64,000 nt of DNA from a virus (taxonomy: Duplodnaviria; Caudoviricetes). Where the stretch lies: positions 8,229 to 72,228 of IMG/VR virus record IMGVR_UViG_3300047160_005605; one strand, given 5' to 3'. The translations under genes were made by a program, and so were the position numbers. A model generated the notes under the pieces. It ran no database searches and was not told the origin of the DNA. It saw only the letters and a list, made by a program, of their open reading frames with translations. Positions 18,034 through 55,290 of the stretch are shown piece by piece (the first letter of the stretch is position 1; every line of letters starts with the position of its first letter).

Positions 18034-19393
18034 GCTGCTGCACGATGGGTCGATAGCGCTCGCCAGAGTGGAAGCCAATGGCATGCGCATCGACATGCGA
18101 CACCTAGAGAACACAGCAAGGCGAGCGACGTTCCGTGCCAAGTTCCTCACTGAGCTATTAGAGAAGGACCCTATCTATGGTAAGTGGCGTGCGCGCTTTG
18201 GTCGCAGTGCGAGCCTCACCAAGCGCCAGCAATTCGCCTATGTGCTGTTTGATATCCTCAAGTATGAGTGCCGAGCGAGAACAGCACCGACGGCAGCGTA
18301 TCCTTTGGGCCAACCCAAGACCGATAAGAAAAGCCTAGCCCACATAGACTCGGAGTTCGTGCAAGACTACTTTCGCCTGATGAAATACCTTAGGATTAAG
18401 AGCACCTTCTTAGAGGGGATAAAGAGAGAAGTGGTCAATGGCTTCTTGCATCCCATCCAGAATCTTAACATAGCGCGCACTTACAGGGGATCGAGCGATC
18501 ACCCCAACGGACAAAACTTCCCCGTGCGCGATCCTGAAATGGGCAAGATGATCCGTCAGTGCATCATCCCGCGCAATAAGAACTACGTCGGCGTGGAGTT
18601 TGACTTCAAAGGTATAGAGGTCGCGGTCGCTGCTTGCTACTGCAAGGATCCCAATCTCATATCCTATGTGAGCGATCCGTCAAAGGATATGCACCGAGAT
18701 ATGGCGGCGCAATGCTATATGTTGCCGCCAGACAAGGTGAGCAAGTACCTAAGATACTGTGCCAAAAATCAATTCGTCTTTCCGCAATTCTATGGCGACT
18801 TCTATCCTCACTGCGCCAGAGCGCTTTGGGAATCTCTAGACCGCGAGCCAGAAGTCAAGGGTTATCTTGCGAGCAAAGGCATCCGCAAGCTTGGCAAATG
18901 TGATCCTCAAATAGACCCCGTGAAGGGAACCTTTGAATATCATATCAAAGAGGTAGAAGCAGACTTTTGGGGTCGCAGGTTTGAGAAGTACGCTCAGTGG
19001 AAGAAGCGACAGTGGGAGCAATACCAAGAAGAAGGTGGGTTTAACTTCTTCACGGGCTTTGCCGAGACGGGCATATTCTCGCGCAATGACGTTACCAATC
19101 ATCGGATTCAAGGTAGCGCTTTTCATATCCTCTTGTGGACTCTGATACAGACCGACAAGTGGCTGCGGCAACGGAGAATGCGCAGCAAGATCATCAACCA
19201 GATCCATGACAGTATGATGATGGACGTGCATAGGAGCGAGTACCAAGAAGTGCTTGCCAAAGTGATCCGCATAGCTACTATCGAAGTGCGCGAGCATTGG
19301 CCTTGGATTATCGTGCCTCTAACCATTGAGGTCGAGAAGTACAAGACCAATTGGCATAACAAGAGACCCGTTAAACTGGAGGCTGTAGCATGA
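18005..19393 (+). CDS. polA: family A DNA polymerase catalytic subunit
   Basis: TTG start after GAGGGA; RGSSDHPNGQN, motif A EFDFKGIE, motif B RYCAKNQFVFPQFYG, IQGSA, motif C QIHDS. Confidence 0.92.
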   Translation: MKPATMEAYKLLHDGSIALARVEANGMRIDMRHLENTARRATFRAKFLTELLEKDPIYGKWRARFGRSASLTKRQQFAYVLFDILKYECRARTAPTAAYPLGQPKTDKKSLAHIDSEFVQDYFRLMKYLRIKSTFLEGIKREVVNGFLHPIQNLNIARTYRGSSDHPNGQNFPVRDPEMGKMIRQCIIPRNKNYVGVEFDFKGIEVAVAACYCKDPNLISYVSDPSKDMHRDMAAQCYMLPPDKVSKYLRYCAKNQFVFPQFYGDFYPHCARALWESLDREPEVKGYLASKGIRKLGKCDPQIDPVKGTFEYHIKEVEADFWGRRFEKYAQWKKRQWEQYQEEGGFNFFTGFAETGIFSRNDVTNHRIQGSAFHILLWTLIQTDKWLRQRRMRSKIINQIHDSMMMDVHRSEYQEVLAKVIRIATIEVREHWPWIIVPLTIEVEKYKTNWHNKRPVKLEAVA

Positions 19394-19758
19394 GAATTGC
19401 ATCCGCACTTCTGCTTATCGTGGTGGTTGGCCAAGTTAAGGCTGGGCAAGACGCGCTAGATGAAGTGAATGCCGCGAGAGCGAGACGTGGCCTGCTTCCT
19501 TACGTCCGTGATGCCGGGTTGACAGCAGGAGCAATCTGCGTGGCAGACTTCCGGGCACAGCGCTTAATCTCCGGCCATACCGGGAATGACTTTAGAGGAC
19601 TGCCTCCAGGCGTCAATGCCAGAGTGTCAGGTTGCGCCGCCTGGGAGCCGCACATGGGATGGGGAGCCTGCTGCACGTTTGAGCGCTGGCATTACGCTGG
19701 CGCTGCATGGTCAATGGGTCGGGATGGGCGAAGATACATGCAGCTATTCTGCCGGTGA
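19390..19758 (+). CDS. secreted short CAP/SCP-domain protein
   Basis: Signal peptide, then ALDEVNAARARRGL.P...D..L, GH, and GAAW...DGRRYMQLF. Confidence 0.7.
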   Translation: MRIASALLLIVVVGQVKAGQDALDEVNAARARRGLLPYVRDAGLTAGAICVADFRAQRLISGHTGNDFRGLPPGVNARVSGCAAWEPHMGWGACCTFERWHYAGAAWSMGRDGRRYMQLFCR

Positions 19759-49068: not shown

Positions 49069-51030
49069 TTACTTCTTGGCGAAGTTCATGGTCGGCATCG
49101 GTAGTGGCTCTTCGACAGCGGTATTGGTCTCAACCCGACCCGCACCCTGACCCGCGTAGTTCGGGCGGCTGCGCTGGGGTTGAGCGAGAGCGGCCATCGC
49201 CCGCAGATCCTTGATGGGGAAGGCGTCGTCAAGGAGGCGATCTTCGGGGTAGGTCTCAGCATCATAGCCCTTGCTGTTCTTGATGAGTTCCACCAAGCGC
49301 AGCTTCTCCTGATCGAGCGCTTCCATGCTGTTGACGATGACCTCCCGAATGCGCGGCGGAGCATTGCGGATATAGTCGTCCACCGAGAGCACCTGATTCT
49401 TGGCCATCCTTTGCTTGTCTTTCTTCTCCTCCTCTTCCTCCTCCGTGTCGTCCTTGCCGTTGCCGTTCTTGGCATTCTTCGTCGCCTTCTTGCGCTCTTC
49501 CATATCCTGATCGGTCTCGGTCTCTTCCTCCGTGTCCCAGCGCTTCCTCTTCGCGCCCTTGGTAGCGGGGCCCTTGATGTTCGTACCCTTCCCTCCCATT
49601 TCAGAGAGTTGCTGGATTCTCGATTCATCGAGACTCTCCAGCCATTCTCGGTCTTCCTCTCCAAACGCCGAGTTGGCGAGTAGAGCATCGACCATTTCGT
49701 TCTTGGTCATGAAATCCTCCTTCTGGTTATAGGTAGCATGACCCACATAGGAACCATCGCTCACTCGGCGATATTCTGAATGTCTGTCAACCGATTCGCG
49801 CTTGCCCGTGTGCTTGACGTTGCCCCCGTCCATCTTGTAGGGCTGCTTGTGCATCTTGCCAGTTCTACCATCCCGAGCCACGTAGAAGTCATCATAGACA
49901 TCCATTACCGAACTAGGATAGTAGTAACTCTCGTTGCTATCCGCTCCCGCCTTCGCGTCATCGGCAAGTTTTTGATTGATCTTGTTTCGGATCTTCTCAT
50001 GCGACATTTTGCTACTGGCGTTGTCAATGGGGTAAACGGGGTCCTCCATCTCGTTCTTCGTCGTGCGCCAGCTATCAGGAAGTGTGAGGCCTTTGCGCTT
50101 GGCGATGGCAACCACCTTGCGGCGCACAGCTTCGGGATTGTCTGCATGGTGCAGCAGGCTCGCCGCAGATTGCACGTCCTTCTGACTCTCGATGGGGAAC
50201 GATTGGTGCGGCCCGGCGAAGCTGCCTTTGTCTAGCTTGTCGCGGCGAGACTTCGGCCAGCGGTCGGATAATTCTTGCAACTCATTCCAGAAAGCCTCTT
50301 CGTCCTCTTCGTTAGCGAGCAGCCCGGCCCCGTCCTTGATAGAGCAAGCGCCCACCTTATCGGGAAGCACTGCGAGATGATCGGGACCGTGATCGCGGGC
50401 GATAGCCTTGTAAGATTCATCATTCCAGGTACCTTCGGTCTGCTCATTCTCGGTAAACAGTCCCGTAGATACTTCCATCTTTTCGTTCTTCTCGATGGCA
50501 TCGCGGACGCGGGGATCGACCTTGTCCATACGGTCTACGTCGCACCACGCTTCGGCGATGAGTTTGCCTCTTCCCTTCTCCTCCTTGTATTGCGTGTTGA
50601 GGATAATGCCGATCTTGCGGACGGCGAGCACTTCGGGAGTGCACGCAGACGTGCCCTTGCCATTCTCTTCGGGATGGTAAACGACAACGGGCTTGTGGTT
50701 CCAAAGCATAGGCCGACGACTCAACTCTTCTTTCGGATAGTAGAGCGGGCCTTTCGAGCCTTGATGCACGCCTTCCGTAAGCATCACCATAGGCGCGACT
50801 AAATAGCGTCGCCCCTCCAAAGTCTCATAGCGAGCACGGCCAGCAAGGTTGACGGTCAGCCGTTCAAGCGTGCGGTCCATGTTTTGGGTTCCCTTTTTCT
50901 TGTCTTGGGATTTGAAGTATTCAACCTCTGCCAATCGCTTGTGCGCTTCGTGTTTGCTTTTGTAGGGACCTCCGAGATGCTTACCTCCCTCACTCTTCAC
51001 CGACCAACCACCTTTTTCCCTGACGATCAT
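49069..51030 (-). CDS. DUF2213-like prohead protease with scaffold region
   Basis: P.V.YHP, E.STG, DHLA.LPD..GACS..DGAG motifs; charged C-terminal scaffold. Confidence 0.8.
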   Translation of the reverse strand: MIVREKGGWSVKSEGGKHLGGPYKSKHEAHKRLAEVEYFKSQDKKKGTQNMDRTLERLTVNLAGRARYETLEGRRYLVAPMVMLTEGVHQGSKGPLYYPKEELSRRPMLWNHKPVVVYHPEENGKGTSACTPEVLAVRKIGIILNTQYKEEKGRGKLIAEAWCDVDRMDKVDPRVRDAIEKNEKMEVSTGLFTENEQTEGTWNDESYKAIARDHGPDHLAVLPDKVGACSIKDGAGLLANEEDEEAFWNELQELSDRWPKSRRDKLDKGSFAGPHQSFPIESQKDVQSAASLLHHADNPEAVRRKVVAIAKRKGLTLPDSWRTTKNEMEDPVYPIDNASSKMSHEKIRNKINQKLADDAKAGADSNESYYYPSSVMDVYDDFYVARDGRTGKMHKQPYKMDGGNVKHTGKRESVDRHSEYRRVSDGSYVGHATYNQKEDFMTKNEMVDALLANSAFGEEDREWLESLDESRIQQLSEMGGKGTNIKGPATKGAKRKRWDTEEETETDQDMEERKKATKNAKNGNGKDDTEEEEEEKKDKQRMAKNQVLSVDDYIRNAPPRIREVIVNSMEALDQEKLRLVELIKNSKGYDAETYPEDRLLDDAFPIKDLRAMAALAQPQRSRPNYAGQGAGRVETNTAVEEPLPMPTMNFAKK

Positions 51031-51054
51031 ATCTCACCTGAAGGAGAGGGTCAA

Positions 51055-51093
51055 GAGAAAATGGAGAGAGGGGTGGACAAGGCCCCTCTCTCC
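51055..51093 (-). terminator. intrinsic terminator ending the secreted-protein cassette
   Basis: GGAGAGAGGGG/CCCCTCTCTCC 11-bp stem followed on the minus strand by ATTTTCTC. Confidence 0.7.
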
Positions 51094-51123: not shown

Positions 51124-51720
51124 CTAACGCCAGTAGTAGGGATTCTTCGTATAGGTTGTATATCCACTGCGGAAGTTGCCGCCGAATCCGAAACTACCCG
51201 ACACGGGCAGGGGCGCGACGATAGGCTGCACAGGCGCGATCGGCTGGACCGGCACGCCGCCGCCCCAAATCGGCTGCGTCGGTAGCACAGGCGGACTAAA
51301 GATCGGCTGCGTCGGAATGCCTGGACTCCAGATTGGCTGCGTCGGTACACCCGGTCCCCACGCTGGCAACTGTCCGGGCAGTCCCGGCTGATTGAATATA
51401 GGCTGGTCGATTCCCGGGCCGCCACCTGGACCCGGATTGACGATGGGGTTATTGATGATCGGGTTAGCAGGAGCAGGAGGCGGCGTCGGCTGCGGACCCC
51501 AGCCGGGACCGAAACCTCCGCCAGCATTCAGTCGTTCAAGGAGTAACCGCAGACGCAGGCACTCACCTTCACGTCCACCATCACCCCCACCTTCCCGCAA
51601 GCTGCGGAGCAGGCCGAGGCAGGTCGGATTGTAAGTGTAGTAAGGTCGATAGCTGTAGTATTGTGCCTGACTTTGTACCGCCAAGGCACCGAGGATCACA
51701 AGTGAGAGAATTGCTTTCAT
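51124..51720 (-). CDS. secreted Pro/Gly-rich low-complexity protein with QPI repeats
   Basis: Signal peptide ending SQA-Q; six QPI units; aromatic termini. Confidence 0.75.
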   Translation of the reverse strand: MKAILSLVILGALAVQSQAQYYSYRPYYTYNPTCLGLLRSLREGGGDGGREGECLRLRLLLERLNAGGGFGPGWGPQPTPPPAPANPIINNPIVNPGPGGGPGIDQPIFNQPGLPGQLPAWGPGVPTQPIWSPGIPTQPIFSPPVLPTQPIWGGGVPVQPIAPVQPIVAPLPVSGSFGFGGNFRSGYTTYTKNPYYWR

Positions 51721-51730
51721 GATTCATCTC

Positions 51731-52414
51731 CTAGCGGCAGAGGCCGCAAACCTTGGCTGGAGTGTAGGGAACCGGGGGAATGGGATTAGTCGTCGGCCAG
51801 CGGACAGGAGGATTGACGAGCATCTGCTGAATGCCAATGTCGCCGCGTATTCCTCCGAACCCTCCGCTGCCGATACTGAGACTGCCTTGACCACCGAAGC
51901 CGCCAATGCTCAGACTGCCGCCAACTGACATGGGCACCGGAGCAGGACCGCCAATCGGCAATTGAATGGGTATTTCAGGAGGAGGACCGCCAACAATCGG
52001 GAAAGACGGAAAGCCGCCTCCTGGAAACACTGGCAATTGAATCGGTAGGTTGCCGCCCCCGCCAAGACGCGGAGGAACAATCACAATCGTCATCGGTAAC
52101 TGATCGACCGGGACCACTGTCACGTTGCCGCTACCGCCGCCTCCGCCCGGAAACACCGGCAGCTGGCCAGACAGCAGACCATTCCAGCCGATGTTGGGAT
52201 TGGGATTCAGGTTGATGTTCGGATTGAAGCCGAGGCCGCCCCCCAGCTGGAGTTGACCTTGCCCCGGCCATGAGGAGGGCGTGCGATACTCGCTGACCAT
52301 CGGCCTCTGGTAGTAAGGACCGGCCATTTGCGTCAGGGAGTAAGTCTTGACATACTGTGCCTGGGCAGCGGATGCGAGCAGCAGAATCAATGGTGCGAAC
52401 AGAAGTCGGTTCAT
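51731..52414 (-). CDS. secreted Pro/Gly-rich low-complexity protein
   Basis: AAGGAG RBS; signal peptide ending AQA-Q; QLPVFPGG repeats. Confidence 0.75.
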   Translation of the reverse strand: MNRLLFAPLILLLASAAQAQYVKTYSLTQMAGPYYQRPMVSEYRTPSSWPGQGQLQLGGGLGFNPNINLNPNPNIGWNGLLSGQLPVFPGGGGGSGNVTVVPVDQLPMTIVIVPPRLGGGGNLPIQLPVFPGGGFPSFPIVGGPPPEIPIQLPIGGPAPVPMSVGGSLSIGGFGGQGSLSIGSGGFGGIRGDIGIQQMLVNPPVRWPTTNPIPPVPYTPAKVCGLCR

Positions 52415-52424
52415 GATGATCTCC

Positions 52425-53117
52425 TTAGTAACCGTATAGGTTGTATCTGGCACTATGCCATCCCATTCGTTGCAAGAAGGCTCCGATAGCCTCATGGCTG
52501 GTGTAAACACCCGGACCACCTCTTGGATCTCCCTGGACAGCGAAGCGGCCTGGACCCTGATAACCGCCGCAGACACCAACAAGCAGGCCGGTTCTAGGGT
52601 CAATCAAGGCCCCTCCGCTGCGTCCATGCCACGGAGGCTCTTGCGTCATCGTCACCCACAGCGAGTCCGAACGCTGAAGTACATGGGCAGGACGAACCAC
52701 GGCGGGGAACTTCATTTCGTCATATCCGACGGACCAGTAGTTGCCGGGTTGTGTGTGGCCGAAGGAGGCTCCGGCAACTGGACAGACGAAAGGCCGTGGT
52801 CCGTCCCTGATCTCGATGAGCGATAAGTCATGTCGTGGATCTCGGCCCCATATTATTTGCTGGCAACCGGGGCGGAACGGGCTCCATCCTGGAGCAGATG
52901 GCATATCAAAAGTCATCCTTTTGTGGAGCATATCCTGCCCGTTCTCCGGATCAAACATATGGGAGCAACCGAGAAGAAAAGTCCGCCCTTGCTCGGTATG
53001 GATGACCGTCGCAGAGACGCCATGCGACGGGATACGCACTACGGCATCCATAGGCCCAGCCAGGGCGGATTGCGGGAGCAGGAACAGGAACGTAAGGAGC
53101 AAGCGTCTCATGGTCAA
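52425..53117 (-). CDS. secreted trypsin-like serine protease
   Basis: Signal peptide; catalytic triad LGCSH / HDLSLI / GRSGGAL. Confidence 0.85.
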   Translation of the reverse strand: MTMRRLLLTFLFLLPQSALAGPMDAVVRIPSHGVSATVIHTEQGRTFLLGCSHMFDPENGQDMLHKRMTFDMPSAPGWSPFRPGCQQIIWGRDPRHDLSLIEIRDGPRPFVCPVAGASFGHTQPGNYWSVGYDEMKFPAVVRPAHVLQRSDSLWVTMTQEPPWHGRSGGALIDPRTGLLVGVCGGYQGPGRFAVQGDPRGGPGVYTSHEAIGAFLQRMGWHSARYNLYGY

Positions 53118-53311
53118 CTCTTTAGTTTGAGGCCCATCACCTGTGCGGCCAATCGTGTGCAGCGCTCAAGCATGTCGAAACCTCTGGCGAAGTGCTGCGA
53201 GGCAGCGTCGATCTTGCTCGGAGGAGTGGAGGTGAATATGTCGAAAAGCTCACCGACTCCATAAGCATAAGCCTGGATCAGAGCGTGGCGTTTGACATCC
53301 GTGTAGCTCAT
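53114..53311 (-). CDS. hypothetical protein (65 aa)
   Basis: GAGGAG RBS before ATG 53311. Confidence 0.6.
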   Translation of the reverse strand: MSYTDVKRHALIQAYAYGVGELFDIFTSTPPSKIDAASQHFARGFDMLERCTRLAAQVMGLKLKS

Positions 53312-53373
53312 GTCCTCCTCACTCTTGGGCGGGGCTTCACCACCATCATCAGGGCATGGCTCGCAGTCGGCCA

Positions 53374-53766
53374 CTACCGAATCCTCCCCACCAGGATCGT
53401 CCCGGTCCACGGCGGGGCCATCTTGGCCGACCAGCGACCGTTGACACGGAGATGATATTGGTTGGTATCCTGGTTCCAGATCGCCAGGACATCGTTCCCG
53501 TCCTTGTCGTACCACCAGCCATTGTTGCCTTTCTCCCAGCGCTTAACCTGCGTCGGCATGGTCTGCTGCGGCTGCGGCACATACTGCGGTCGATAGATGG
53601 GCTGAACGCCCAGACCTCCGAGGAACGGTTGCTGCATCATCATCGGAGCCATACTGGCTCCCCCGCTGTAGAAGCCTCCTCCACCACCAGAGAAGCCTCC
53701 ACCGCAGGAGCCGCCTCGTCACTGACCAATACTCAAGGCACCGATCAGCATTAGTGTGTGGATCAT
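53374..53766 (-). CDS. secreted Gly-rich protein with in-frame TGA at codon 16 (Sec/readthrough candidate or pseudogene)
   Basis: ATGA-coupled start; MIHTLMLIGALSIGQ-TGA-RGGSCGGGFSGGGGGFY... continues in frame into ORF 53374..53652. Confidence 0.6.
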
Positions 53767-53957
53767 TGTTTCAGTTTCTCCCGCCGCATCTTGGCCTTTT
53801 CTTCAATCGTGAGACCAAAGACTTGATCCTCCCAACTCTCATACCGCCACATATCGTAGAATAGGATCTTGCCCGCCAGTCCGCAGATGAAGCCGAAACA
53901 CCAAGAAGCGGCTAACAACACGAAGATACACCACGTCGGCACTCCATCCTCGTTCAT
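53763..53957 (-). CDS. small membrane protein
   Basis: ATGA-coupled at both ends; one TM helix and a basic C-terminus. Confidence 0.6.
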   Translation of the reverse strand: MNEDGVPTWCIFVLLAASWCFGFICGLAGKILFYDMWRYESWEDQVFGLTIEEKAKMRREKLKQ

Positions 53958-54280
53958 GGTCGAATCGGCCTCCCCGGTGGTTTGAGATCCGGCCGGTCCG
54001 GAGGTTTCACCTCGGGCGGCTTTACTGGAGGAGTCCCCACACTCGGCGGGGTCGCTGGGCAACTGCATGTAGGACACACACACACGCCGCAGGGACAGCA
54101 TGGCCGGACGGAGTAGTAGCAGCAACCTCCGTTATAGCAACCTCCGCAACCATTGCCACAGCAATCGCCGCAGCCACCTCCTCTACAGCGCCCGCCACCA
54201 CGACGACCAAACGCTTCGGTAGGAGAGACCAATACAAGTAACCAGAGGGCGATGGCAACGAGCATCAAGATCCGTTTCAT
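53954..54280 (-). CDS. secreted Cys/Gly-rich protein with Pro-rich tail
   Basis: GGAGG RBS; signal peptide; 15 Cys in ~45 aa; KPP repeats. Confidence 0.75.
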   Translation of the reverse strand: MKRILMLVAIALWLLVLVSPTEAFGRRGGGRCRGGGCGDCCGNGCGGCYNGGCCYYSVRPCCPCGVCVCPTCSCPATPPSVGTPPVKPPEVKPPDRPDLKPPGRPIRP

Positions 54281-54291
54281 TGCAAACCTCC

Positions 54292-54624
54292 TTAGTCGGC
54301 ACGGAAATAACCCCATCGTGGGGGAACATTGATATTGGCGAACGGAGCCTGCACCGAGACACCCGGACGGAAACCGTATCCCCAAGGTCTATTCCAACCC
54401 CAAGGTCGGCCATATCCCCACCAGGGGTTGGGTTGAAAGGCCCATGGATTAGATTGCAGCGCCCATGGATTGCAAGTGGGCGAGCAACCGAAGGGTCCGC
54501 AACAGCCGTTGGGACCGCAGGATGTGCCGGGGGCACAACCGTTAGGACCACATTGAGCTTTGCTTGGGAGGGCGAAGGTAATAAAGATGATGGTCGTTAA
54601 GCCACATAGGCTGAGAAATTTCAT
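54292..54624 (-). CDS. secreted Cys/Gly/Trp-rich protein
   Basis: Signal peptide; CGPNGC x2; NPW and RPWG repeats; GVSVQAPF. Confidence 0.75.
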   Translation of the reverse strand: MKFLSLCGLTTIIFITFALPSKAQCGPNGCAPGTSCGPNGCCGPFGCSPTCNPWALQSNPWAFQPNPWWGYGRPWGWNRPWGYGFRPGVSVQAPFANINVPPRWGYFRAD

Positions 54625-54770
54625 GCCTTCTCCTTTAGCAGTAGAGTATGTTTCTTCTGGCGGGATGATCCTTTTTGCCGCTGCACGGGTTCTTCCTTCT
54701 TTTCCTTCTTTTCCTTCTTCGTCGTGTGAGCATGGGAGGTATGTCCGTGCCCATGTGTCTCCTCAGTCAT
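54621..54770 (-). CDS. small His/Lys-rich peptide
   Basis: GGAGG RBS; HGHGHTSHAH followed by a Lys/Glu run. Confidence 0.45.
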   Translation of the reverse strand: MTEETHGHGHTSHAHTTKKEKKEKKEEPVQRQKGSSRQKKHTLLLKEKA

Positions 54771-54858: not shown

Positions 54859-55290
54859 TCAAGGAGGCGATGGCTCGATGGAATCATAGCGACACACATA
54901 GTTGGGTTGTTTCATTAGCTCTTTCTCCTCATCGTAGGCGTCGAGAATGACTTGCCGTAGGATATTGCGACACTCTTTGGTGATGGGGTGAGCGATATCG
55001 GCATAGAGCTTGATCTGCCCGTCGCGTGTGAGTTGATGCTCGGCTCGGTTCGGGTCTAGTCGGCGGCCACAATCATTACAGAAGCGTGCTCGGAGATGGT
55101 TCTTGTGGCTGCAATAAGGACAATGGTCTATCCGCTTGCGCGAAGGCATCGACACGAATAGACCATTGTTGCCATTGATGATCTTGATATCCCTTACCAC
55201 AAACTCATCAGCAAGGGTTATCGAGCAGAAGGCAAGGAGACGTTCGTTATCCTCTTGCATGACTTTTACTCGGACGTCCGTAATCTCCAC
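54859..55290 (-). CDS. spoVG: SpoVG homologue with zinc-ribbon insertion
   Basis: MEITDVRV...LLAF.SIT..D.FVVRDIKII.G..GLFVSMPSRK and DIAHPI; CPYC...CNDC insert. Confidence 0.92.
   Translation of the reverse strand: MEITDVRVKVMQEDNERLLAFCSITLADEFVVRDIKIINGNNGLFVSMPSRKRIDHCPYCSHKNHLRARFCNDCGRRLDPNRAEHQLTRDGQIKLYADIAHPITKECRNILRQVILDAYDEEKELMKQPNYVCRYDSIEPSPP

Follow-up and report, generated by a model that had tools for sequence, protein, structure and literature searches.

Mycobacteriophage LysA/LysB/holin lysis cassettes include an extra non-muralytic hydrolase suited to an unusual outer envelope layer; this enzyme, LysB, is a lipolytic esterase working alongside a true endolysin. In Planctomycetota of the Gemmataceae type, peptidoglycan synthesis is eroded and the wall contains Cys-rich proteins. 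Pro-rich, periplasm-spanning linkers are known from proteins of the TonB type. An example of LysB is given in PMC13578437, and the holin-endolysin-spanin cassettes of diderm phages, such as lambda S/R/Rz/Rz1, are covered by a spanin survey (PMC6139136).

Here, we describe a viral gene cassette that resembles the diderm-phage cassettes in being compact, co-directional, and late, and in combining small membrane proteins, a predicted exported hydrolase, and Pro-rich/coiled-coil periplasmic proteins, whereas its enzyme is an HtrA-type protease rather than a peptidoglycan hydrolase. In comparison with LysA/LysB, the constant enzyme is the protease and no recognisable muralytic enzyme is present; lipolytic-type genes are also carried in the same slot by two relatives, namely Lipase_3, a class-3 lipase, in locus L005 and a class-3-lipase-like protein (GHSLG, recognized by eye) in L024, where an exported nuclease-like protein was also recognized by eye. 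No Pfam, PHROG, or NCBIfam family covers the cassette and no published description was found, in line with an earlier sequence-only reading of this DNA, which knew of no such phage module.

Organization of the cassette

The analyzed window, a 64,000-nt stretch of a Caudoviricetes genome, contains nine coupled genes on the minus strand at 51124-54770, with SpoVG on one side and a prohead protease on the other. Every element of the cassette described by the sequence-only reading, including the repeat proteins and the TM peptide, was recovered:

c1, 54621..54770, minus strand: 49 aa, His/Lys-rich; opens the cassette; GGAGG 5 nt upstream; TGA overlaps the c2 ATG
c2, 54292..54624, minus strand: 110 aa, predicted signal peptide ...SKA|QCGPNGC, 8 Cys, NPW/RPWG repeats
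c3, 53954..54280, minus strand: 108 aa, predicted signal peptide, 15-Cys cluster, Pro/Lys-rich tail
c4, 53763..53957, minus strand: 64 aa, single TM segment, highly charged C-terminus
c5, 53374..53766, minus strand: 130 codons if TGA 53719-53721 is read through; 92 aa (53374-53652) from ATG 53652
c6, 53114..53311, minus strand: 65 aa, without signal peptide; stop 2 nt ahead of the c7 ATG
c7, 52425..53111, minus strand: 228 aa, predicted exported HtrA/DegP-type S1C serine protease domain
c8, 51731..52414, minus strand: 227 aa, Gly/Pro-rich, signal peptide AQA|QY, QLPVFPGG motif
c9, 51124..51720, minus strand: 198 aa, signal peptide SQA|QY, QPI repeats; family A
Intrinsic-terminator-like hairpin, 51053..51093, minus strand: 11-bp stem, 9-nt loop, U-rich tail; closes the cassette

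The cassette is set inside the late operon, between the terminase, portal, MuF-like, and SpoVG genes and the prohead protease and MCP genes. Two of the neighboring labels proposed earlier stand in a weaker form: the head-morphogenesis gene has a MuF match, but one below the Pfam cut-off (E = 0.0012), and the prohead protease label is based on phrog_760 (function unknown) plus a weak match to a head-maturation-protease PHROG. The spacing between consecutive genes from c1 to c9 is -4, 11, -4, -4, 62, 2, 10, and 10 nt, with ATGA overlaps at three junctions, and no promoter of the cassette's own was found in the window. The terminator ascribed to the cassette is a strong one: its perfect, GC-rich 11-bp stem (51083-51093 paired with 51063-51073) is followed by AUUUUCUCUU, and its fold was matched by none of 200 shuffles; the hairpin was overlooked by the automatic terminator scan because of its 9-nt loop.

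Signal peptides were detected by a simple heuristic in five of the nine cassette genes and in one of the remaining 68 genes of the window (Fisher p = 3.6e-5). The sequence-only reading had counted six; five are clear, and the sixth, in c5, occurs only upstream of an in-frame TGA. Coating of virions, one of the roles suggested for these proteins, is unlikely: five, possibly six, products are predicted to be Sec-exported, whereas virions assemble in the cytoplasm. No lipobox was found in c8 and c9, and none of c2 (SKA|QC), c8 (AQA|QY), and c9 (SQA|QY) has a Cys at position +1; together with the lack of an embedded or overlapping spanin gene pair in the cassette, this sets the locus apart from the holin-endolysin-spanin cassettes.

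No sequence homologs were found for c1, c2, c3, c4, and c6, and c1 and c4 have no family match in Pfam or PHROG. Given that c1, c2, c3, and c6 lack homologs in any search and that overlapping ORFs exist in other frames at the cassette, these four could be chance open frames in GC-rich DNA, with only the protease, c8, c9, and c5 forming the functional set. This explanation has very little probability in our view: a Shine-Dalgarno-like site, or else an ATGA overlap with the neighboring gene, is present at each of the four, the strand is filled gaplessly, and c2 and c3 start with canonical signal peptides of the kind so rare elsewhere in the window. Analogous proteins, compositional analogues only, lie beside the protease in L010, L002, and L005, which argues in the same direction. 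The analogue of c2 is an exported (N/S)PWG-repeat protein (L010 6701-7051) beside the L010 protease and family A genes, and those of c3 are CxCxxC clusters inside family B or A proteins of L002, L005, L008, L024, and L034.

The HtrA-like protease

The protease c7, previously read as an intact trypsin-like enzyme, indeed matches Pfam Trypsin_2 at 31.1 bits (cut-off 27.6) and has the catalytic triad His53, Asp97, and Ser167 in chymotrypsin order. Asp97 and Ser167 are invariant among 30 aligned family members, of which 90% or more have His53; the GxSGG motif (G[RQ]SGG) occurs in 232 of 234 members, and an N-terminal hydrophobic segment in 136 of the 139 members with complete N-termini. For the AF2 model of c7 (pLDDT 85), the top Foldseek matches are DegP, DegQ, and DegS (probability 1.00, E about 7e-9, TM about 0.6), Rv3671c is matched as well, and a profile match links c7 to HtrA1 (E = 2.6e-5).

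The shared features of c7 and HtrA/DegP/DegQ/DegS (MEROPS S1C; PDB 3OTP, 3STJ, 2QF0), as well as Mycobacterium tuberculosis Rv3671c (3LT3), are the chymotrypsin fold, the His-Asp-Ser triad, GxSGG, and periplasmic export, the last being predicted for c7. In contrast to these HtrA-type proteins, with which its sequence identity is 14-19%, c7 is phage-borne, is paired with a family A protein, and has no PDZ domain detectable with Pfam, the 228-aa protein stopping after the protease domain; lacking PDZ, c7 is better described as an HtrA-like protease domain than as a classical HtrA. A further difference concerns the protease family, in which 71% of members, c7 not among them, carry a family-specific C-terminal Cys-Pro tail. 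On sequence and model evidence, c7 is thus an intact HtrA-like serine protease with predicted Sec export.

At 50% identity, the family forms at least 245 clusters, which come mostly from Gemmataceae/Planctomycetota prophages and viral contigs. In P0169, the protease is naturally fused with a holin-like domain, and in P0117 with 'CPDGRC-LPWR' together with a coiled coil and collagen repeats.

Recurrence of the gene pair in related phages

Roughly two dozen related phages and prophages share the cassette core. In 24 of the 27 evaluable loci, a family A gene is found downstream of the protease at a distance of no more than 4 kb, and the order protease-B-A is common to the window, L002, L004, and L005. 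The synteny comparison suggested earlier therefore speaks against random assortment of the pair of protease and Pro-rich exported protein. Family A proteins consist of a signal peptide, Cys-LPWR, a coiled coil, Pro repeats or collagen, and a YxRY tail. In the window, c9 combines a signal peptide with a conserved Cys, a short coiled-coil-like segment, and QPI repeats, has GYTTYTKNPYYWR as its C-terminal tail, and is matched by BLAST to L005 11548-12315 (6.5e-10) and L010 5941-6549 (2.8e-7). Judging from these sequences, c7 and the rod-like, predicted exported c9 are a gene pair kept in the phages and prophages of the host clade.

Set against the i-spanin layout of an N-terminal TM anchor and a periplasmic coiled coil, the family A proteins of relatives have a membrane domain plus a coiled-coil-like segment, whereas c9 has a cleavable signal peptide only; prophage-type loci encode an extra protein, about 75 aa long, in which a TM segment is combined with a coiled coil. 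With TonB-type linkers, the relatives' proteins share an inner-membrane anchor, an extended Pro-rich repeat in which K/R and D/E alternate, and, at the C-terminus, a short conserved element, but they have neither the TonB C-terminal domain nor homology to it, and c9 is without the anchor. The predicted exported protein c8 has no homolog in the database search, and its only link to family B, of which it would be a divergent member, is through motifs (VPVDQLPMTIVIVPP and, near the C-terminus, PPVRWPT); these motifs are specific, yet they were chosen after the fact and the family B HMM gives E = 1.3.

The repeat proteins contain tandem near-identical decapeptide units, e.g., GGPPRQDIPL, with P-I, P-L, or P-V in each repeat. 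HtrA proteases favor aliphatic P1 residues. Families A and B and c2 could accordingly be precursors cut by the HtrA-like protease, or in relatives by a C39-like one, into many short Pro-rich peptides, serving as signals or as antimicrobials directed at competitors; a C39-like peptidase domain (the bacteriocin leader peptidase fold) is fused to the protease in six family members, the match being weak (E = 0.0039). We see little probability in such processing. The repeats vary freely between phages, the conserved parts of family A being Cys-LPWR, the coiled coil, and the YxRY tail, and in L017 and P0117 true collagen G-X-Y repeats take the place of the mid-region, which is more suggestive of a structural spacer than of peptide cargo; furthermore, neither immunity nor export genes were identified.

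A holin-like 2-TM domain, absent from the window, is present in 16 of the 27 loci, often fused to family A; it lies downstream of the protease in most loci and upstream in L004 and L016. Six of 11 copies match phrog_297 'holin' (best E = 9.5e-4) and others match other holin PHROGs, the holin assignment being weak (PHROG E-values from 1e-3 to 0.3; Pfam Phage_holin_1 0.084). Its topology is N-in/C-in, as in class II holins, and in relatives it adjoins the enzyme. In relatives, the c7-c9-type pair is thus joined, as far as sequence similarity tells, to a class-II-type holin-like domain, either as a neighbor or as a fusion. The 64-aa c4, with one hydrophobic segment and the C-terminal end EEKAKMRREKLKQ, fits the small-TM/charged-tail holin architecture and matches no described holin family in Pfam or PHROG; by architecture alone, it is a candidate holin.

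The planctomycete connection made by the sequence-only reading holds for the host clade of the relatives, as 9 of the 12 genome loci reside in Gemmataceae or Planctomycetota MAGs. Among five such MAGs, none has a PBP transpeptidase match and the Mur-ligase yields at most one weak match, a pattern that agrees with a review of the subject (PMC12673574). No Phage_lysozyme, Amidase_2, SLT, M15_4, GH25, Amidase_3, M23, or NlpC/P60 domain was detected in the contig of the window (GH19 was also searched, its control being silent), and these endolysin families are likewise missing from five related protease-bearing genomes, three of them complete. This lack does not discriminate, because 12 head-module relatives (at least 90% complete), which have no protease, papain C1, lysozyme, Amidase_2, or SLT, are also without recognisable endolysins.

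A possible protease-based opening of the envelope

Among the envelope-related roles put forward by the sequence-only reading, breach or non-canonical lysis is favored by the late-operon setting, the conserved pair, the holin-like links, the planctomycete clade, and the absence of a covering family or paper. The recurrence of the core in relatives, often fused to a holin-like membrane domain, indicates that the cassette is probably an undescribed means of protease-based envelope opening. We put at about even the chance that it is a late-expressed lysis or envelope-breaching module of this kind, directed at a peptidoglycan-poor, protein-walled host of the Gemmataceae type. We know of no lysis enzyme of the HtrA type.

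A point against lysis is that the cassette is placed differently in different phages, as morons are. In the window and L010 it lies upstream of the prohead protease, in L002, L004, and L005 downstream of the MCP, and in L127 at a prophage end. The same shifts would suit envelope remodelling or superinfection exclusion, in which the protease trims receptors or wall proteins while the Pro/Gly/Cys-rich proteins mask the envelope, guarding the infected or lysogenic cell or keeping progeny off debris. The cassette's own terminator, its absence from the 80 closest MCP relatives, and the lineage-variable accessory members also fit this role, and the composition of c9 is like that of structural matrix proteins (ESM Atlas score 0.78, only a lead). 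Nevertheless, we regard such a role as unlikely: translational coupling into the late structural operon without an own promoter differs from typical conversion morons, and masking would hardly account for the protease-holin fusion or for the recurrent linkage to a holin-like domain.

In the lysis reading, the exported protease would enter the periplasm and degrade wall or envelope proteins, replacing or supplementing a muralytic endolysin, with timing or completion provided by a small membrane protein (c4 in the window, the KPGWKTSEFW domain in relatives). Family A, as a coiled-coil plus polyproline or collagen rod, would span or organise the wide periplasm and may anchor the protease by a disulfide that links its own Cys preceding LPWR to the Cys-Pro tail at the C-terminus of the protease family, a tail that c7 does not have. 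c8, c2, and c3 would act as lineage-variable exported Pro/Gly/Cys-rich accessories, and c5 may supply a redox-active Sec-x4-Cys peptide against disulfide cross-links.

The order of elements in c5 is a short signal-peptide-like leader (ATG 53766), the in-frame TGA 53719-53721, RGGSC, a Gly-rich and then a Q/P-rich stretch, and a small W-rich beta domain, which also occurs as an insert in protease P0001. The leader-TGA-x4-Cys layout is found at the same place in all four phages compared (the window, L002, L004, and L005), and the L005 counterpart has no in-frame start for 56 codons past the TGA. GU-loop hairpins lie 15-35 nt downstream of the TGA in all four, with z-scores of only -0.25 to -1.8 and a weak consensus structure; no SECIS match was obtained with Rfam, and no tRNA was found in the window. 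SelA is encoded in all five Planctomycetota MAGs carrying the protease module (three with E about 1e-145, two about 1e-90). With these features, c5 is a candidate exported selenoprotein.

It is conceivable, if doubtful, that phages of peptidoglycan-poor, protein-walled Planctomycetota lyse by a chemistry unlike that of all studied phages, in which an exported HtrA-like protease on a coiled-coil/polyproline rod would be combined with an exported peptide carrying selenocysteine (signal peptide, Sec-x4-Cys), whose task would be to reduce or shuffle the disulfide cross-links of the Cys-rich wall. If so, c5 would be the first phage-encoded, Sec-exported selenoprotein.

Cassette architecture and the late gene run

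The window covers bases 8229-72228 of a 72,228-bp IMG/VR viral contig, which belongs to the linear class and is ~89% complete. Its plus-strand arm (1-30550) carries replication genes together with GTP cyclohydrolase I (FolE), QueC, PTPS/QueD-like, radical-SAM, and QueF-like proteins, a set that probably constitutes a 7-deazaguanine DNA-modification pathway. The minus-strand gene run spans 30.5 to 62.7 kb and includes the nine-gene cassette (c1-c9).

Genes flanking the cassette, all on the minus strand and in minus-strand order
Terminase large subunit, intein-bearing; first in order
Portal, next after the terminase (Phage_portal_3, E = 1.3e-21)
MuF-like protein, after the portal (E = 0.0012, under the Pfam cut-off)
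54859-55290, SpoVG homologue, after the MuF-like protein (E = 3.2e-28)
51124-54770, cassette c1-c9
Prohead-protease/scaffold-like protein, 653 aa, after the cassette (phrog_760, E = 1.3e-24)
160-aa protein, between the prohead-protease/scaffold-like protein and the capsid gene
DUF6260 major capsid protein, last in order

The SpoVG homologue contains a zinc ribbon (DZR, E = 1.4e-5) inserted in the middle of its fold. All nine cassette ORFs were confirmed as coupled and tightly spaced, three junctions being ATGA overlaps and the remaining gaps mostly 2-11 nt. The terminator that the sequence-only reading had placed at the end of the cassette is indeed present after c9 as a GC-rich stem of 11 perfectly paired bp followed by a U-rich tail; 200 shuffled sequences gave no fold as good. 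Immediately past it lies a promoter-like site, TTGACC-17-TATGAT (10/12 matches; 51026-51054, minus). The -10 hexamer of this site shares bases with the ATG annotated as the start of the prohead protease ORF, so that translation may in fact begin at the internal Met51. Alignments with prohead protease homologues start only at residue 55, and the N-terminal 50 aa (50881-51030, minus; GGWSVKSEGGKHLGGPYKSKHEAHKRLAEVEY), which we take to resemble a DUF2188-type small domain, may have been fused to the ORF or may form a small gene of their own.

A single simple rule applied to every gene of the window assigned signal peptides to five of the nine cassette genes (c2, c3, c7, c8, and c9), compared with 1 of the 68 other genes (Fisher p = 3.6e-5). 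The one strong signal peptide outside the cassette belongs to a 122-aa gene of the replication arm (19390-19758, plus; MRIASALLLIVVVGQVKA followed by GQ). Six signal peptides had been claimed for the cassette; five stand, and the sixth is a 15-codon leader (MIHTLMLIGALSIGQ) cut off from the remainder of c5 by an in-frame TGA. Since Sec signal peptides are carried by five, possibly six, of the products, the earlier proposal that these proteins coat released virions was rejected; envelope remodelling or superinfection exclusion by the same exported proteins is a less likely rival to the lysis reading developed below.

The unusual composition ascribed to the cassette proteins holds: c3 contains 15 Cys, c2 contains 8 Cys and 17% aromatic residues, and c8 and c9 consist of 15-18% Gly and 15-17% Pro. 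The 64-aa c4 is the sole membrane protein of the window's cassette. Membership of the cassette proteins in the spanins was rejected because a lipobox is absent. Searches of all nine proteins against Pfam, PHROGs, and NCBIfam produced Trypsin_2 as the one match, a DNA search of the phage collection gave no match, and scans of viral contigs with single proteins detected no relative. A second, improbable rival explanation is that the cassette is partly non-coding.

The protease family and its conserved partners

The claim that c7 encodes a trypsin-like protease was borne out, as the protein passes the Pfam Trypsin_2 threshold. The AlphaFold model of c7 (pLDDT 85, pTM 0.83) is nearest in structure to DegP, DegQ, DegS, HtrA, and Rv3671c (14-19% identity) and has no PDZ domain. 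Word-sharing homologues of c7 number 112 (~45% identity), and many are encoded on contigs 40-78 kb long. Among 1.84 billion representative proteins, a profile search reached 245 clusters at E <= 1e-30, a number that rises to 1549 when the limit is relaxed to 1e-10. In a 30-member alignment Asp97 and Ser167 do not vary and at least 90% of the sequences have His53, and the G[RQ]SGG motif is retained in 232 of the 234 collected members. Nearly all members with complete N-termini (136/139) start with a hydrophobic segment. A Cys-Pro tail (CPT or CPGG[ST]) ends 71% of the family, e.g., at L023 836-1579 and L034 8004-8741; c7 itself is without it.

The protease profile identified 19 loci in IMG/VR and 12 in GTDB genomes, nine of the latter coming from Gemmataceae or Planctomycetota MAGs, where some are prophages within contigs of 0.15-1.9 Mb. 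Twenty-seven loci were evaluable once redundant and truncated ones had been dropped. A gene of an exported protein family (family A) follows the protease within 4 kb downstream and on the same strand in 24 of these 27 loci, so that the synteny check proposed for planctomycete phages and host genomes came out in favour of a kept gene order. Family A proteins open with either a signal peptide or a membrane domain, followed by a conserved Cys that is mostly adjacent to LPWR, a coiled-coil-like region rich in Q/L/R, a rod of variable make-up, and a short conserved tail (such as GYxRYTxW...R). The rod is built of QPI repeats, PxQxxP[IL]xG decapeptides, PPYVPPA repeats, or true collagen G-X-Y repeats. 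The member of the window is c9 (BLAST E = 6.5e-10 to L005 and 2.8e-7 to L010), for which the ESM Atlas gave only sub-threshold arthropod cuticle look-alikes driven by composition.

Three other phages (L002, L004, and L005) have both a DUF6260 capsid and the protease, and in all three a second exported protein, family B, is encoded between the protease and family A. Both signature motifs of family B occur in c8 in the conserved order, and this pair was found in just 4 of 10,111 six-frame ORFs, namely c8 and the family B proteins of the three phages. Given that the motifs were picked after the sequences had been seen and that the family B HMM was not significant on c8 (E = 1.3), we consider c8 only a probable, divergent member of the family. 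A large protein search with c8 returned the query alone. The layout of L010 parallels that of the window (portal, protease, family A, an exported (N/S)PWG-repeat protein, scaffold), the repeat protein being the analogue of c2, and c3-like Cys clusters are located within family A or B proteins of several relatives. Prophage-type loci have a four-gene block composed of a ~75-aa protein that combines a TM segment with a coiled coil, the protease, a fusion of a holin-like domain with family A, and an MEKL-starting protein of 110-145 aa; the block is situated just upstream of ParB-like and, by eye, apparent packaging genes, or at the prophage end.

The holin-like domain has two TM segments (KPGWKTSEFW...YIKSRxxLK) and was observed in 16 of the 27 loci, either as a protein of its own or as an N-terminal part of family A. 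It is mostly downstream of the protease (upstream in L004 and L016) and was not found in the window. Six of 11 copies match the 'holin' family phrog_297 (best E = 9.5e-4) and further copies match four other holin PHROGs, the Pfam Phage_holin_1 score being 0.084 at best and each similarity weak singly. Its charges are distributed in a way that points to an N-in/C-in topology, the arrangement of class II holins.

Direct fusions were observed between the same components. P0169 joins the protease to the 2-TM domain. P0117 is a fusion of the protease with family A, in which '...GCPDGRC-LPWR' leads into a coiled coil and then collagen repeats. The Cys-Pro tail of its protease part is immediately followed by the Cys-LPWR of family A, and this contact suggests that the two proteins, where encoded separately, are linked by a disulfide. 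Six further members (P0185, P0188, P0218, P0142, P0118, and P0178) carry a C39-like papain-fold domain (Peptidase_C39, E = 0.0039) after a Q/P-rich linker. Other hydrolases in protease clusters include a class-3 lipase in L005 (7131-7892; Pfam, E = 1.9e-24) and, as recognized by eye in L024 (3888-4505 and 4744-5565), a class-3-lipase-like protein with a GHSLG motif and an exported nuclease-like protein. The combination of a protease with exported repeat proteins can also be read as a precursor-plus-protease peptide factory, a third and improbable rival.

The in-frame TGA of c5

The c5 gene is interrupted by an in-frame TGA; elsewhere in the cassette TGA is an ordinary stop. The same layout, a hydrophobic leader of 12-19 codons, TGA, four residues, and Cys, is present in all four DUF6260-type phages with the protease.

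In-frame TGA sites
Window, 53719-53721 (within 53374-53766, minus)
L002, 5098
L004, 9197
L005, 9612

The sequences after the TGA in the four phages read U-RGGS-C, U-GGGS-C, U-GSGG-C, and U-HGGG-C, and c2 has Cys-x4-Cys at the matching post-signal position. In L005, 56 codons past the TGA contain no in-frame start. A small beta-sheet is modelled with confidence for the last 45 residues of c5 (AF2 pLDDT ~88 over residues 39-78) and has no clear structural match (VIA-align best not above Z = 4.4). Sequences that precede the protease in L002, L004, and L005 encode the same domain, which also forms an insert inside the protease P0001. Hairpins with GU loops occur 3' of the TGA and are statistically undistinctive against the GGN-rich sequence; Rfam detected no SECIS element at c5 and no tRNA was found in the window. 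SelA is encoded in all five related host MAGs. A large protein search with c5 read through the TGA returned the query alone, and a search for additional leader-TGA c5 genes via family B in IMG/VR and metagenomes led to the same contigs only; the c5 alignment was too poorly conserved for a scan. We lean slightly towards site-specific recoding of this codon, either as selenocysteine or by read-through, for which the conservation in four phages is new evidence; decoding as selenocysteine would make c5 one of the few phage genes in which a codon is recoded.

Host walls and the envelope-breaching reading

To our knowledge, all studied tailed phages exit the host by cutting peptidoglycan. No Phage_lysozyme, Amidase_2, SLT, M15_4, GH25, Amidase_3, M23, or NlpC/P60 domain was detected in the window's contig, nor GH19, for which the control was silent; the same families except M15_4 had no matches in five further viral genomes with the protease, of which three are complete. 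The protease is mostly absent from the 80 closest capsid relatives. The expectation that relatives without the protease carry a normal endolysin failed in 12 of them that share the DUF6260 head module (at least 90% complete; including G012 and G019, with L115-L121), where neither the protease nor papain C1, lysozyme, Amidase_2, or SLT was found; in two whose genes were all inspected, no cluster rich in signal peptides is present. The lack of recognisable endolysins is thus not discriminating.

The loss of wall genes on the host side is more telling. Most mur genes, mraY, ftsI, and ftsW have been lost in the planctomycete lineage, and among five Planctomycetota MAGs of 6-8 Mb that contain the module none has a PBP transpeptidase match and Mur-ligase gives at most one weak match. 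Studies of the cell walls of Rhodopirellula, Gemmata, and Tuwongella have reported Cys-rich YTV proteins (PMC12673574). A wall of this kind could plausibly be attacked with an exported protease. Pfam gave no YTV-domain match at E <= 0.1.

The best-supported reading of the cassette is that it breaches the envelope late, by means of the protease, as a lysis module specific to planctomycete hosts. What is shown is limited to the anatomy of the cassette, its conservation, the fusions, and the host association, whereas the enzymatic target, the timing, and the parts played by the individual low-complexity proteins are inferred. Family A could act as a rod that spans the periplasm or tethers the protease, and the small membrane proteins might trigger the breaching. 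No published description of such an HtrA-like protease cassette was found in the literature. If the lysis reading is true, the protease, rod, and holin-like module would offer a concrete, testable lysis mechanism for Planctomycetota and an independent probe of the stress-bearing component of their walls. It would also be a source of envelope-opening enzymes and an aid to the genetics and cell biology of these hard-to-handle organisms.
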